Shown: positions 15,516 to 28,519, numbered from the stretch's first letter. The stretch: DNA of 64,000 nucleotides from Limisphaerales bacterium (GCA_047608975.1 JBLFYM010000002.1:7189-71188); one strand, 5' to 3'. Numbers and translations: made by a program. The notes: generated by a model not told the origin, from the sequence alone.

Positions 15516-16058
15516 CTTCCCGCCATCAAGACGAAGTCGACAGAGGGAAAGGTAGTCTGGCTCACAGGCTTTTCTGCCGCCGGCAAAACGACCTTGGCAG
15601 TGGCCCTGCATGAACGACTCACCGCGAACGGCGTGGCAGCGAACCTGATCGACGGCGATATTGTACGCCAAGGACTCTGCCGGGATCTTGGATTCAGCCG
15701 CGAGGACCGCGCTGAGAACGTGCGGCGCGTGTCGGAGGTTGCCCGACTGATGGCTGATGCAGGTCTTTACTGCATCGTCGCGCTCGTGTCTCCCTATCAA
15801 GATGATCGGCTCGCCGCGGCCAAAATCGTCGGGGAGCCGCGATTCTACGAAATCTTCGTCGATGCCCCGCTGGACGTTTGTCGCAGCCGGGATCCTAAAG
15901 GTCTCTACAAGAAGGCGGATGCGGGCGGGTTGTCGGCCTTCACGGGCGTTTCCGACCCCTACGAACCGCCGCTCTCTCCCTTTCTTCATCTCCACACAGA
16001 TTCGCTGTCGGCAGAGGACTGCGTCGGGTTGCTGTTCGCCGCTGTCGTCAATTCGTGA
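15516..16058 (+). CDS. cysC: Adenylyl-sulfate (APS) kinase; start codon uncertain
   Basis: In-frame VVWLTGFSAAGKTTLA P-loop (15552-15599) upstream of the ORF-track start; DGDIVRQGL..DLGFSREDRAENVRR, RDPKGLYKKA, FTGVSDPYEPP. Confidence 0.88.
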   Translation, partial: LPAIKTKSTEGKVVWLTGFSAAGKTTLAVALHERLTANGVAANLIDGDIVRQGLCRDLGFSREDRAENVRRVSEVARLMADAGLYCIVALVSPYQDDRLAAAKIVGEPRFYEIFVDAPLDVCRSRDPKGLYKKADAGGLSAFTGVSDPYEPPLSPFLHLHTDSLSAEDCVGLLFAAVVNS

Positions 16059-17857
16059 AATCTGCATTGCAAAAAATTCGCACCATGCTGCAGATCGAGC
16101 GCACGTTGGGTCTGGTCTGGCGGGCGGGCCGATCGTGGGTTGTGGCGGGGCTGCTGCTCTCGGTTATTCTCGGGGTCATCCCCTTGGCCGCCCTCTGGCT
16201 GCACAAACTGATCATTGACACCGTCACCCGCGCGAATTTCGACACGGATGAAGCCGGGAGAGCGGTAGTCGGATTTGTCATCGTATTGGGGATCATTGAA
16301 TTGATCGCGTTGCTCTGCCGGCAGATCAGCAGCTATCTGACCGAGGAGCAGGGGCAGATCGTTCAGGACCACGTCGCCGACCTCGTTCACACGAAGTCAA
16401 TCGAAGTCGATCTGGCATTCTATGAGAACGCCGAATACCAGAACACCCTGCACCGTGCCCAGATACTCGCCCCCACTCGCGCGGCAAACTTTGTGCAGTT
16501 GCTCAGCCAGATCCTTCGCAACGGCCTTTGCCTCGTTGCGGTCTTTGGTTTCTTGGTGACGTTCCATTGGGGACTTGCGCTGATGCTTCTCCTGGCTGTG
16601 CTGCCCGGGCTCTTCGCCCGCCTACAGTCGGCCGACCGGATGTTCGAGTACCAGAAGGAGACCACTGAGCGCGAGCGTCTGGGCTGGTATTACCACTCCA
16701 TGAACACGCAGAACGCCAGCGCGAAGGAAGTCCGAATCTTTCAGCTAGGGGAGCTGTTCCGTCGCTGGTACCGGGATCTTCGCCGGCAGATTCGCGAGGG
16801 GCGTATGCGCCTCGCCCGTCGGCGGGTGATCATCGAATTCGGCGTCCAATGTGGTGCGACGCTCGCCCAATACGGGGGTTACCTTTATGTCGCGATCAGG
16901 ACAGTTCAGGGCGACTTTACACTCGGGGACCTGGTCATGTTCTACCAGGCTTTCCTGCGGGCGCAGACCTTCCTACAGCAGCTGTTGCAGGCCCTCTCCG
17001 GCCTCTACGAAAATAATCTTCTACTGGGGCAACTGTTCGCCTTTCTCGACACCACCAACGAGATCTCTTCACCCGCTGTACCGACCGCGTTGCCCAATCC
17101 AGAGGAAGCGCGGGTCGAATTCAACAACGTCCGCTTTGCCTATCCCGGCAGTCGGCGAGCGGTGCTGCACGACGTCAACCTCACGATCAATCCGGGCGAG
17201 CATATTGCCATTGTTGGCAAAAACGGATCAGGCAAGACGACTCTCGTAAAACTGCTGTGCCGGCTATACGACCCGACCGATGGCCAGATCACACTGGGCG
17301 GAAGCCCGCTGGCGGTATTCAATGTCGCCGACTACCGGCGGCAATTCAGCGTCCTCTTTCAGGACTATCTGCAGCATCCTCTGTCCGTCCGGCAGAACAT
17401 CTGGTTCGGGGACATTGTGAAAGCACCCGGATCCGGCCGGGTCGAAGAGGCGGCGAAGCTCACCGGTGCGGATGAATTCATCGCGGACCTGCCGAAGCAG
17501 TTTGAGTCCACGCTGGGTCGGCGCTTTCAGGAGGGCGAGGAACTCAGTCAGGGCGAATGGCAAAAGATTGCGCTCGCGCGCGCACTGCAGCGCGATACCG
17601 GCTTTGTGGTCCTCGACGAACCCACCAGTTCAATGGACCCGGAGGCCGAGTATCGGATTTTTCAGCAGTTCCATAAACTCACACGTGGCCGCACCGCGAT
17701 CCTCATCAGTCACCGCCTCAACACCGTGATGATGGCCGACCGCATCTACGTGGTGGATGAAGGCCGGATCATCGAAACCGGTTCCCATCAGGAGCTTCTC
17801 GCCAACGGCGGCCACTACGCCGCCCTCTTCGAAACTCAGGCCAGCAACTTCCGATGA
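16055..17857 (+). CDS. ABC exporter, fused permease/ATPase (lasso peptide D-type; no C39 peptidase domain)
   Basis: About 6 TM helices, Walker A GKNGSGKT, LSQGEWQKIALARA, VLDEPT, ISHR; GTG start overlaps the cysC stop. Confidence 0.9.
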   Translation: MKSALQKIRTMLQIERTLGLVWRAGRSWVVAGLLLSVILGVIPLAALWLHKLIIDTVTRANFDTDEAGRAVVGFVIVLGIIELIALLCRQISSYLTEEQGQIVQDHVADLVHTKSIEVDLAFYENAEYQNTLHRAQILAPTRAANFVQLLSQILRNGLCLVAVFGFLVTFHWGLALMLLLAVLPGLFARLQSADRMFEYQKETTERERLGWYYHSMNTQNASAKEVRIFQLGELFRRWYRDLRRQIREGRMRLARRRVIIEFGVQCGATLAQYGGYLYVAIRTVQGDFTLGDLVMFYQAFLRAQTFLQQLLQALSGLYENNLLLGQLFAFLDTTNEISSPAVPTALPNPEEARVEFNNVRFAYPGSRRAVLHDVNLTINPGEHIAIVGKNGSGKTTLVKLLCRLYDPTDGQITLGGSPLAVFNVADYRRQFSVLFQDYLQHPLSVRQNIWFGDIVKAPGSGRVEEAAKLTGADEFIADLPKQFESTLGRRFQEGEELSQGEWQKIALARALQRDTGFVVLDEPTSSMDPEAEYRIFQQFHKLTRGRTAILISHRLNTVMMADRIYVVDEGRIIETGSHQELLANGGHYAALFETQASNFR

Positions 17858-19005
17858 TTTTCGAAGACGATCCTGAACTGACATTGCTGGTCCGGCTGCT
17901 GCGAAATTCGATGGCCGGCAAAACAGCGGAGGATTCCTTGTGGTCTTCGGTATTCAGCAAATCCTATTTTTTGAAGCTGGTCCGGCGTCACCGGGTCGCG
18001 GCATTCCTCGCCAGCCGAGCCGACACGGCTTCACTGCCTTCCTCTACTCAGAACAGCTTGGCAGACATGAGTGCCGCGAACGCAGTCAAAGCCCTGTTAC
18101 GCACGCGGACGCTAATTGAACTCGGCAAGCGGCTGGAAAACGCGAACATCCCGTTCCTCAGCGTAAAAGGCCCGATGTTGGCGCAGCGGCTCTACGGCGA
18201 TGTGGGGGGGCGTCATGCTGGCGACCTTGATTTTCTCATCGACTCGGAACATGTCGCGGCAGCGGACGGATTGATGCGCGAGTCGGGCTGCCGGCGGAGT
18301 TCACCTAATTTCGATCTTAGCCCGCGCCAGTGGCGCGAGTACCAGATTATTCGACACGAGTTCCAGTATTTCAATCAAGAGGGTATCCGCATTGAATTCG
18401 GCTGGCGACTCGCAGGACTAACAGGGACGCAGTTTGACGAACTGTATGCGGCGCATCGCGAATCGCAGTTTGGCGGAATTTCCATTCCACGACTTCCGGC
18501 AACCACCGAACTGCTGCACCTCTTCGTGCATGGTGCTGGCCATGGTTGGTTTCGTCTCTTCTGGCTCCTCGACATCGCTCTCCTATTGCGACGCGATCAT
18601 GACTGGGAGGCGTTGATGCGCGAAGCCCGCCGAACACGAACCGAGCACTGCGTCTGGCAGGGGGCGCGACTGGCTGAAACGATTTTTGGAGTTGAGCTTC
18701 CAGCCAGCATTCGTCCTCCAGAGAATCGCCAAGGGGTAGTCGATTGGCTGGTCAATGACGCTATTCGCCAGCTGCGGGCGGACGAAAAACACCATTCCAC
18801 TCCGATCAGCTTGTTGCGCGATGCTCTGTATCTTCTGCGCTTGCGTCCCGATCGGACCGCGCGCGCCGCTCTCGTCCGCCCCCGGCTTTGCTCACCAGAA
18901 AACTGGCAGCGCTTCCCGCTGCCAGATCAATTTTTTTCCCTCTACTATCCCGCTGCGCCGTTCCTTTGGTCATGGCGACGTATTTGGCGAGCAGATGATC
19001 CCTAA
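17854..19005 (+). CDS. Nucleotidyltransferase family protein (NTP_transf_5-like, lasso-cluster type)
   Basis: VKGPMLAQRLYGDVGGRHAGDLDFLI, LHLFVHG..H.WFRLFWLLDI; ATGA overlap with the ABC gene. Confidence 0.85.
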   Translation: MIFEDDPELTLLVRLLRNSMAGKTAEDSLWSSVFSKSYFLKLVRRHRVAAFLASRADTASLPSSTQNSLADMSAANAVKALLRTRTLIELGKRLENANIPFLSVKGPMLAQRLYGDVGGRHAGDLDFLIDSEHVAAADGLMRESGCRRSSPNFDLSPRQWREYQIIRHEFQYFNQEGIRIEFGWRLAGLTGTQFDELYAAHRESQFGGISIPRLPATTELLHLFVHGAGHGWFRLFWLLDIALLLRRDHDWEALMREARRTRTEHCVWQGARLAETIFGVELPASIRPPENRQGVVDWLVNDAIRQLRADEKHHSTPISLLRDALYLLRLRPDRTARAALVRPRLCSPENWQRFPLPDQFFSLYYPAAPFLWSWRRIWRADDP

Positions 19006-27769: not shown

Positions 27770-28063
27770 GTCGTGTAATAGCTACGGGATTGTCCAAAAT
27801 CCCGGTCAGGTTCGCAAGGAATGAAGAGCATGCAGTGGCAGGCCCAGTTTGATTTAGGGCAGGCCAACGGCGAATTACTGCGACTTTGCGAACGCGCAAG
27901 AGAGGTCAACACAACTACACAGAGGATGGTAAGATTGCGAGCAGTTCGCATGAGCAAGCTGTGCAAATCTGGTCGAGGCAGTGAGCAGACACGAGGAAAG
28001 TCCCACGCAGTTCACCAAAATCCCGTTTGATCTCAATTTCGAAACAACGTACACCACAAGCAC

Positions 28064-28519
28064 ATGCCAGCGGCACTCAACGAAGAATCACGGCCCCTGC
28101 GAACCGTCCTCACCATGAGCTGGCGTGACCAGGCGTTGCATGCTGAAGCAGCGCTATGTCTGTTTATGGCCAAAGTTCTCATCCACACCATTCCGTTTCG
28201 CTGGCTTCATGCCCTGATTGTGACGCAGCCGCTTACAGCCTTGGTTGTCCGGCAACCTGCAAAGGGTTCGGAGATCCAGAAAGTTGTATTTGCTGTGAGG
28301 ACTGTCGTGCGAAGGAGTCCGATAGAATTCATCTGCTTCCCTAAGGCGGTCGCCGTCAAGTGGATGCTCAATCGCAGAGGCTACGCCAATTCATTGTGTC
28401 TTGGTGTGTCTCGTCCGGAAGAGGAACTCAAAGCCCATGCGTGGGTGGAAGTTTGTGGACAAACGATCATAGGAGGTGGTGAAAGCCTGCAATACTCCGA
28501 GGTCTTACGCCTTGACTGA
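28064..28519 (+). CDS. Lasso peptide leader peptidase (B2, transglutaminase-like Cys protease)
   Basis: CFPKAVA (catalytic Cys), L.RRG....L.LGV, LKAHAWVE. Confidence 0.9.
   Translation: MPAALNEESRPLRTVLTMSWRDQALHAEAALCLFMAKVLIHTIPFRWLHALIVTQPLTALVVRQPAKGSEIQKVVFAVRTVVRRSPIEFICFPKAVAVKWMLNRRGYANSLCLGVSRPEEELKAHAWVEVCGQTIIGGGESLQYSEVLRLD

Follow-up and report, generated by a model that had tools for sequence, protein, structure and literature searches.

A probable mobile island for a lasso peptide with kinase and sulfotransferase tailoring genes in a Limisphaerales genome

We analysed a stretch of 64,000 nucleotides from a Limisphaerales bacterium (GCA_047608975.1 JBLFYM010000002.1:7189-71188), called here the window; all positions are counted from its first letter. 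The segment 15440..28762 is a 13.3-kb island with 13 genes, and it probably represents a horizontally mobile unit for a class II lasso peptide with split B proteins, of the paeninodin/pseudomycoidin type, tailored by a kinase and a sulfotransferase. The island contains candidate genes for the precursor (A), the macrolactam synthetase, or cyclase (C), the leader-binding protein (B1), the leader peptidase (B2), the exporter (D), a peptide kinase (K), a nucleotidyltransferase (N), a sulfotransferase (ST) and an adenosine 5'-phosphosulfate (APS) kinase (cysC).

For comparison, we sampled 160 loci via the cyclase, with 80 taken from species genomes and the other 80 from metagenomes, and searched them with the window proteins by tblastn (E<=1e-3). 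Together with seven loci fetched via ST they form a set of 167 related loci. Many metagenome loci span 1.4-8 kb, and absences there are weak.

Borders of the island and the host genome

The island extends from the end of mqnA (15439) to the start of the first of two response regulator genes (28763). In two genomes of the same genus, G001 and G004, mqnA is followed within approximately 30 nt by two response regulators and an aldo-keto reductase gene (loci L183 and L184), and no matches to the island genes were observed at the mqnA site of either genome. Thus the segment 15440-28762 is present or absent as a single unit, and its edges agree with those of the cluster predicted originally from the sequence of the window. 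Since the 13 genes are missing as one block in two same-genus genomes, their grouping is more than chance. The island-free state is seen in two of four same-genus genomes; the contig of G003 stops at mqnA, and G002 differs. The latter, which is the closest same-genus genome, has unrelated genes after mqnA (L181, 1-15840); both the island and the response regulators are missing, and the site is variable.

No flanking direct repeats, tRNA genes or integrase genes were found at the island ends, and the repeats that were detected look like chance. One inverted match of 40 nt (78%) links 15578-15617 within cysC and 27344-27383 within K. Both segments encode Walker A motifs, on opposite strands, and the match is most likely a coding coincidence.

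The host genome has 6.4 Mb in 277 contigs and is 93% complete. The identity of the RpoB segment is 73% to a Verrucomicrobiales metagenome-assembled genome (MAG), 69% to an Opitutaceae MAG, 61% to a same-phylum genome and 53% to a Planctomycetota MAG. In addition, six sulfatases, one DUF7133 protein and one PSCyt1 protein are encoded in the window. Both lines of evidence bear out the Planctomycetes-Verrucomicrobia-Chlamydiae (PVC)-like host of the original prediction, which we narrow by inference to Verrucomicrobiota.

Lasso peptide genes and the precursor

Scans with Pfam and NCBIfam profiles identified the gene families at the positions given earlier, and the arrangement in three blocks was confirmed: a forward block of cysC, D, N and the GDSL-like gene, a reverse block in the order K, ST, B1, C, A, and B2, which is divergent from K. 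The predicted overlaps of stop and start codons are real. They are of 4 nt for cysC and D (if D starts at GTG 16055), 4 nt for D and N, 4 nt for orf168 and orf275, and 1 nt for K and ST, where the stop of K lies on the start of ST. The GDSL-like gene overlaps or abuts the stop of N, depending on the start used.

The gene C (23674..25593, reverse strand, TTG start) encodes a candidate lasso macrolactam synthetase with the Asn_synthase domain (PF00733, 3.9e-34) and the PP-loop SGGLDSS. Its best NCBIfam model is that of the lasso cyclase, NF033535 (1.9e-105, 353.9 bits, strict cut-off 525), against 182 bits with asn_synth_AEB and 85 bits with AsnB (PRK09431). The protein begins with Met-Ser, so that residue 2 is Ser and the glutaminase Cys is missing. 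This agrees with the earlier description of a Cys1-less, asparagine-synthetase-like cyclase distinct from true AsnB. The nearest cyclases in a database of 5.8 billion proteins have 35-38% identity, and in a metagenome scan L092 (36% identity, 5.6 kb) was the sole fairly close cyclase locus among the matches listed.

B1 (25639..25938, reverse strand) is a PqqD-type recognition element for peptides that are synthesized ribosomally and modified post-translationally (RiPPs), and B2 (28064..28519, forward strand) is a transglutaminase-like leader peptidase. Both score above the curated Pfam cut-offs: 65.7 bits against 23.4 for B1 (PqqD, PF05402, 4.8e-18) and 77.8 bits against 26 for B2 (Transglut_core3, PF13471, 7.9e-22). 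B2 also exceeds the curated cut-off of the lasso B2 model NF033537 (82.8 bits, cut-off 33), and it is the sole copy found in the genome. The best NCBIfam match of B1 is lasso_PqqD_Bac, the Bacillus-type lasso PqqD model, at 51.8 bits, below the cut-off of 80. The gene D (16055..17857, forward strand, start at GTG 16055 or ATG 16085) encodes an MsbA-like ABC exporter (ABC_tran, 9.8e-31, and ABC_membrane). Its homologues were observed in 56 of the 160 cyclase loci, 38 from the genome set and 18 from the metagenome set.

The precursor gene A (23423..23563, reverse strand) is an open reading frame (ORF) recognised by its leader/core pattern. It encodes 46 amino acids, MQEIETDTSEKKVWTDPEWNSAVVSEITQMNATAGGDGGAANTSAS, with a leader (residues 1-29) and a core of 17 residues (30-46). 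The leader contains W14-x-x-P17 and Thr28 at position -2 from the predicted cut, Asp37 occupies core position 8, and the C-terminal residue is Ser; the 17-residue core predicted earlier was thus recovered with the expected Thr and Asp. The same layout is found in precursors beside K-bearing cyclases in other phyla. The closest precursor, at L031 from a Bacteroidetes MAG, has a common leader motif KKVW-x-x-PE and core Asp8 followed by Gly-Gly. No family model exists for A, and it gave no tblastn matches in the 167 related loci.

The available text of a 2026 paper on discrimination by RiPP recognition elements (RREs) states that discrete lasso RREs recognise [Y/W]xxPx[L/V/I/F/A], and that the first-position Trp is nearly invariant in paeninodin-like leaders (PMC13381572). 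The Bacillus-type best match of B1 fits the WxxP leader of A. At the level of genes, therefore, the island has the features of a split-B lasso system: a cyclase without the Cys, a PqqD-type B1 with a separate B2, and a precursor with WxxP, Thr at -2 and Asp8. The HPr-kinase-like K, the NTP_transf_5 protein N and the C-terminal Ser further sustain the earlier assignment to the paeninodin/pseudomycoidin type.

Two elements were found next to the precursor gene. A terminator-like hairpin with a T-run (23378..23400, reverse strand; 9-bp stem, 7 GC pairs) lies 22 nt past the stop of A. Scans for repeats and hairpins identified a tandem 16-nt direct repeat (23598-23629), which also folds into a hairpin, between the stop of C and the start of A (23590..23629, reverse strand). 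One contig from an RNA library (run X15), which reaches from the end of C into the start of A, lacks exactly one 16-nt tandem copy.

Kinase and nucleotidyltransferase

The gene K (26882..27769, reverse strand) encodes an HPr-kinase-like candidate peptide kinase, with 22.4 bits for Hpr_kinase_C (cut-off 33.3) and 38.5 bits for TIGR04352 (cut-off 200). Conservation extends to His111 and to the Walker A and DD motifs, the latter two being retained across ten homologues. Homologues of K occur in 80 of the 167 lasso loci; within the 160 cyclase loci, 47 belong to the genome set and 26 to the metagenome set. According to the available part of a review, PadeK phosphorylates the C-terminal Ser of the linear paeninodin precursor and leaves the threaded peptide unmodified (PMC8498205).

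The gene N (17854..19005, forward strand) encodes a nucleotidyltransferase of the NTP_transf_5 family (PF14907, 6.4e-51, 173.8 bits, cut-off 31.2) with a GDLD (DxD) motif. Homologues were found in 36 of the 160 cyclase loci (26 genome, 10 metagenome) and in 4 of the 7 fetched ST loci. In the accessible portion of the study of pseudomycoidin, PsmK is described as adding phosphates and PsmN as then placing one or two hexoses onto the phosphate (PMC6993621). By analogy, N may have a PsmN-like role.

Pairing of the kinase with the sulfotransferase

The gene ST (26031..26882, reverse strand) encodes a protein of the Sulfotransfer_1 family (PF00685, 7.7e-28, 98 bits, cut-off 22). It is the sole Sulfotransfer_1 protein found in this 93%-complete genome, and no Sulfotransfer_3 was found there. 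The closest solved relatives are Teg12, Teg14 and StaL (E 7.7e-16 to 2.8e-9). Three motifs are invariant in all nine homologues considered: the loop PKSGNTW, K88-x-H90 (the KxHD His) and R116..D120..S124 (RNPLDV..S). We take these to be the 5'-phosphosulfate loop, the catalytic His and the 3'-phosphate motif, respectively. With the profile match, the three motifs place ST, as judged from its sequence, among Sulfotransfer_1 enzymes dependent on 3'-phosphoadenosine 5'-phosphosulfate (PAPS).

Homologues of ST with 39-45% identity were found in five other genomes among 400 sampled in the phylum. A sixth genome, G249, has a partial match (32%, E 4e-14), which is outside the seven fetched loci. Each of the seven loci fetched via ST in the phylum contains B1 and has K adjacent to ST; five contain the cyclase, five B2, four N and six the exporter. 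In the window and in L173, L174, L175 and L179 the K and ST genes overlap or directly adjoin each other, and in L149 a gap of 8 nt separates them. Taken together, the gene order points to a joint function of the kinase and the sulfotransferase.

Genes of PAPS synthesis accompany some of these loci. One complete 3.1-Mb genome contains two K-ST clusters, L175 and L176, each with cysD, cysN and cysC. Among the 160 cyclase loci, cysC was found in two, L015 (Rubrobacter, beside N) and L070. Since K lies beside ST in seven of seven loci, cysD, cysN and cysC are embedded in two clusters, and the sole ST of the genome shares the island with cysC, sulfation looks like an integral feature of a lasso cluster subfamily rather than the work of an accidental neighbour. 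More generally, the tailoring genes proved to be syntenic with lasso genes elsewhere, as would be expected from the original prediction: K and N with the frequencies given above, ST beside K in the seven fetched loci and L149, and cysC in L015, L175 and L176.

Structure prediction points in the same direction. The predicted complex of K and ST has an ipSAE of 0.86 (0.86, 0.87 and 0.86 in three runs), against 0.33 for the best of three controls. As many as 58 of 80 solved complexes attained this mark, against 2 of 110 mismatched pairs; these counts apply only roughly here, because our own alignments were supplied. The runs share at least 97% of contacts, and the partner predicted local distance difference test (pLDDT) values are at least 83. 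The predicted interface involves the Walker A residues 127-129 and Asp150 of K, and a family-specific segment 47-76 together with 151-156 of ST. The model thus lends support to a binding of K and ST. We know of no solved complex of this kind.

Precursors were identified in seven of the ten ST-bearing loci, whereas the motif search detected none in L013, L175 or L176. All seven precursors end in Ser, which is their sole common feature, and three of them, including that of the window, have no Tyr. N is missing from four of the ten ST-bearing loci, and therefore a group installed by N cannot be an obligatory acceptor for ST.

The individual K-ST loci differ in several respects. The usual coupling is broken by a small ORF between K and ST in L176 (9059-9427) and L177 (10559-10945); the former belongs to the family of 23S rRNA-intervening-sequence proteins, as confirmed by Pfam, and the latter was assigned to it by similarity. 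The ST homologue of L177 (9543-10403) has one in-frame TGA and may be a pseudogene. In L149 (7864-9164) the series K-ST-B1-A-C continues with a Sulfotransfer_2 protein and an Asp/Asn beta-hydroxylase. A fusion of VKOR with DsbA/thioredoxin directly follows B1 in L173 (11816-13096) and L174 (7882-9135), and the precursors of these loci contain two Cys each, which suggests a built-in disulfide-forming step. Three low-GC K-ST loci contain a gene annotated as sugar-transfer associated ATP-grasp (L175, 4879-6099; L176, 4476-5714; L178, 8011-9258), and in L175 and L176 it adjoins the cyclase gene.

Proposed pathway

The pathway outlined here has observed elements, namely the gene identities, the island boundaries, synteny and motif conservation, and all its chemical steps are inferred. 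Firstly, B1 would bind the 46-aa precursor via the WxxP leader motif. K would phosphorylate the precursor at its C-terminus. ST, translationally coupled to K and predicted to lie against its active-site face, would use PAPS to sulfate a hydroxyl there or close by, and the target could be a Ser or Thr of the tail or a group built on the phosphate. The PAPS would be provided by the APS kinase of the island. N may attach a hexose or a nucleotide-derived group to the phosphate, as PsmN does. B2 would then cleave after Gln29, C would form an eight-residue macrolactam between Met30 and Asp37, and D would export the product. The nine-residue tail has no bulky side chain, and thus the anionic decorations of the C-terminus may act as a steric plug. 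Also carried along by the island are the HTTM-fold protein and its small partner, as well as the GDSL-like and PSCyt1 proteins.

More specifically, and tentatively, K and ST may form a physical module that adds phosphate and sulfate to the linear precursor in the region of its C-terminal Ser; the sulfate may be on a phosphate-linked group. The product would then be the first sulfated lasso peptide, its anionic cap would hold the tail, and the genes of PAPS synthesis would mark a subfamily centred in Verrucomicrobiota.

Evidence against the proposed pathway and alternative explanations

Several observations, presented here together with the alternatives to which some of them lend weight, count against the interpretation of the island as a source of a tailored lasso peptide. 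ST is rare: it was found in 2 of the 160 cyclase-sampled loci, L013 from Acidobacteriota and L149 from a metagenome. Tyr is the usual site of peptide sulfation, and the core of A contains none. No close homologue of C was found in 40 relatives from the same genus or order (best identity 27%), and hence there is no conservation within the genus. The scores of C and B1 are both under the strict cut-offs of NCBIfam, and that of K is under the curated cut-off of every kinase model. Finally, a C-terminal Ser was observed in 24 of 81 precursor candidates found by regular expression in 62 K-bearing loci, a noisy and uncurated set with evident false positives. By these sequences, the link between K and the C-terminal Ser is not universal among K-bearing loci.

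One possibility, to which we assign a low probability, is that the island is decaying or non-producing, or that its product is branched-cyclic instead of threaded. Met is unusual at core position 1, and no residue of the tail (38-46) could serve as a bulky plug. In the available text of its description, purified unmodified pseudomycoidin is reported as unthreaded, and the authors propose bulky C-terminal groups as a lock (PMC6993621). By analogy, the product of A may unthread as well. The cysC gene also bears on this possibility. It lies in an open frame of 180 codons (15516..16058, forward strand), and its assignment to the APS_kinase family is firm (PF01583, 1.3e-59; TIGR00455, 215.6 bits, cut-off 138.7). 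This part of the original prediction stands, whereas a canonical start is missing: from the upstream stop (15513-15515) to the P-loop, neither ATG nor GTG nor TTG occurs. ATC at 15525 is the only start option before the P-loop, and the first canonical one, TTG at 15594, would delete it. Judging by the sequence, cysC likely starts at ATC 15525 or else is defective. Decay does happen in the ST family, as the in-frame TGA in L177 demonstrates.

On the other hand, all 13 reading frames of the island are open and the catalytic motifs are intact, and ATC is an allowed start codon in translation table 11. Near-identical DNA was found in 14 runs labelled as ice or seawater metagenomes, and the DNA analysed here may itself derive from six of them. 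Contigs from four seawater RNA libraries, with at least 95% likeness, cover parts of most island genes, although transcription is not thereby proven. The longest of them (646-687 nt) fall on orf275. Their depth cannot rank genes, and some parts of the island are uncovered, from which nothing is concluded.

It is also improbable that the lasso core, K and N are functional whereas cysC is a housekeeping APS kinase and ST sulfates another molecule, a glycan or a lipid. Apart from the rarity of ST and the lack of Tyr in the core, this explanation draws on the sulfatase-rich neighbourhood with its SulP permease and on the sulfur metabolism of the host. The cysC gene of the island is the sole APS kinase gene found in the genome, which makes a housekeeping role possible. 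The sulfate assimilation operon (cysN, cysD, cysH and sulfite reductase) is on another contig. The host CysH ends in ECGLH and has no Cys pairs of the kind present in Fe-S APS reductases. By a motif rule that we assume here, it is presumably a PAPS reductase, which would need cysC. Thus cysC could serve sulfate assimilation also, or only.

However, cysC occurs or is missing along with the island. Its identity to the stand-alone copy in G002, the closest relative, is 60%, whereas orthologues in that genome have approximately 90% identity, so cysC is a xenologue that came with the island. Moreover, nine relatives, four of which are 94-97% complete, retain the CysH orthologue, yet no APS kinase was seen in them. 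The adjacency of K and ST in all fetched phylum loci, with lasso genes around them, the translational coupling of the two genes, the presence of cysD, cysN and cysC within two lasso clusters, and the predicted K-ST complex likewise argue against a separate role of ST. We conclude that cysC arrived with the island; a dual role is possible.

Finally, a linear polyphosphorylated peptide (LPP) is a highly improbable product and this reading was rejected: a module of K, N, RRE and exporter is common to LPP and paeninodin-like clusters (available text of PMC13381572), and no cyclase was detected beside K-ST-B1-B2 in L177 and L178, but in the window a cyclase and a B2 peptidase are encoded and a gene resembling signal peptidase I is missing, its 46-aa precursor has Asp at core position 8, and its leader is WxxP, against YxxP in LPP leaders.

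Comparison with known systems

As in paeninodin of Paenibacillus dendritiformis (PadeA/C/B1/B2/D/K), the window island preferred here as a lasso peptide cluster has split B1 and B2, a cyclase, an ABC exporter, an HPr-kinase-like protein, a precursor with a C-terminal Ser and a leader of the W type, as far as the accessible parts of the sources describe them (PMC8498205, PMC13381572). Unlike paeninodin, it belongs to Verrucomicrobiota and adds ST, cysC, N, the HTTM protein and the GDSL-like gene. Its core has 17 residues with Met1, and its cyclase is at most 38% identical to anything searched; the comparison with the Pade proteins is by description.

The island resembles the pseudomycoidin cluster of Bacillus pseudomycoides (PsmK/PsmN) in the combination of K with a DxD nucleotidyltransferase, in the C-terminal Ser and in a tail without an effective plug (PMC6993621, available text). 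In contrast, N of the window is in a separate operon with cysC and D. The available text of that paper, which calls PsmN an uncharacterised NTP transferase, contains no occurrences of "sulfotransferase".

The LPP clusters (Popov et al. 2026) share with the island an HprK-like kinase, an NTP transferase, a discrete RRE and an MsbA-like pump, and differ in the use of a signal-peptidase-I-like peptidase, in YxxP leaders and in having no cyclase, whereas the window has C, B2 and WxxP (PMC13381572, as far as its text is available).

ST resembles its closest solved relatives Teg12, Teg14 and StaL, which are PAPS-dependent and act on peptide natural products. These enzymes sulfate phenolic hydroxyls of glycopeptide aglycones, whereas the core of A has no aromatic residue. 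The interface segment 47-76 of ST lies outside the best aligned stretch with these proteins, which begins at residue 107.

The co-occurrence of an HPr kinase and a sulfotransferase in lasso clusters was noted in 2014 (PMC4289311, accessible part), and a 2021 review describes the two for lasso clusters reported in 2016 (PMC8498205, accessible part). The original prediction held that no lasso peptide with the combination of tailoring genes of the window, or from this lineage, was known to have been characterised. In part this has to be revised, as the kinase and sulfotransferase genes have been in print since 2014. As to the remainder, neither a characterised lasso peptide with sulfation nor one from Verrucomicrobiota came up in our literature searches, and words that begin with "sulf" are missing from a 2022 review of unusual lasso modifications. 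The new elements are the sharply delimited island, the conservation of the K-ST pair and the support for its complex, the genes of PAPS synthesis within clusters and the HTTM-fold protein within the island.

Lasso peptides are valued as stable scaffolds, and their known tailoring reactions are few. No product or role has been reported for the sulfotransferase genes noted beside lasso genes since 2014. With 13 genes and a 17-aa core, the island is a compact and well-bounded test case, and the comparative evidence suggests that in some relatives the PAPS supply is built into the pathway. If the proposed scheme is true, the product would be the first lasso peptide known to be sulfated, and the scheme offers a testable answer to the threading of a tail without plug residues. 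The island is also a lead for natural-product research and genome mining in Verrucomicrobiota from seawater and sea ice; few metabolites of this phylum have been characterised. A further lead, independent of the first, is the occurrence in a RiPP island of a protein with the vitamin-K-carboxylase fold.

Other genes of the island and its neighbourhood

The remaining island genes lie between N and A. The gene orf168 (22022..22528, forward strand) encodes a small protein with an N-terminal hydrophobic segment and is coupled by an ATGA overlap to orf275 (22525..23352, forward strand), which encodes an integral membrane protein. Homologues of orf275 number 1905 at E<=1e-3, and 12 of 55 aligned members match PF05090 (HTTM); the neighbouring clusters in the protein atlas carry HTTM as well. 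The AlphaFold2 model of orf275 has a pLDDT of 95.6, and its 11 best matches in the PDB are all to vitamin-K-dependent gamma-carboxylase (GGCX; template-modelling scores 0.55-0.63), with nothing else in the PDB close. By this model, orf275 is an HTTM-fold membrane protein similar to the transmembrane domain of GGCX. Unlike GGCX, it has 275 residues and no lumenal domain. The core of A has no Glu that could be carboxylated, which makes such a modification of the core unlikely. The match to the SdpB family (TIGR04033, 3.6e-7) is weak and below the cut-off; SdpB has a role in peptide maturation. Two homologues of orf275 lie within the lasso locus L179, and a weak match in L173 (8.6e-4) overlaps the nucleotidyltransferase gene and was discounted.

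For orf168 there were no matches in Pfam (E up to 10) or NCBIfam (E up to 1). The protein atlas gave unnamed clusters only, with DUF5819 at 0.81 as a lead. Together, orf168 and orf275 had been described as a linaridin-like pair, and this was rejected: the family profiles, which were applied without linaridin reference sequences, gave no linaridin signal (for orf275, Pfam with E up to 10 and NCBIfam with E up to 0.01). What was found instead is a protein of the HTTM/GGCX fold with a small partner. Likewise, nothing points to epimerisation or dehydration by such a pair, which had been considered earlier.

The GDSL/SGNH-like gene (18995 or 19007..20023, forward strand) encodes a protein with an N-terminal hydrophobic segment and visible GDS and ND motifs; a clear DxxH block was not seen. 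The original call of an SGNH gene is thus weak: a GDS motif is present, but the match to PF13472 (22.5-23.6 bits) is below the cut-off of 32.9. The PSCyt1 gene (20299..21861, reverse strand) encodes a cytochrome-c-like membrane protein (PF07635, 1.6e-11), which is an island passenger or has another role. Queries with orf168, the GDSL-like protein and the PSCyt1 protein gave no tblastn matches in the 167 related loci.

The intergenic region between the divergent K and B2 (27770..28063) presumably contains promoters, judging by its position. No consensus sigma-70 site was found in it, and a promoter scan was at the chance level (6 found, 5.6 expected).

Outside the island, the neighbourhood is rich in sulfatases: six genes with Sulfatase domains and a SulP/STAS sulfate permease gene flank it (375-12267, 40218-41999, 42227-43795, 47495-49021). 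A 513-aa protein (54618-56159) with no Pfam match at E<=1e-5 is encoded beside a 712-aa protein (56172-58310) with several immunoglobulin-like domains. In the second response regulator (29243-29833) the receiver domain is followed by a C-terminal extension rich in Cys, and this regulator is 95% conserved in same-genus genomes without the island.

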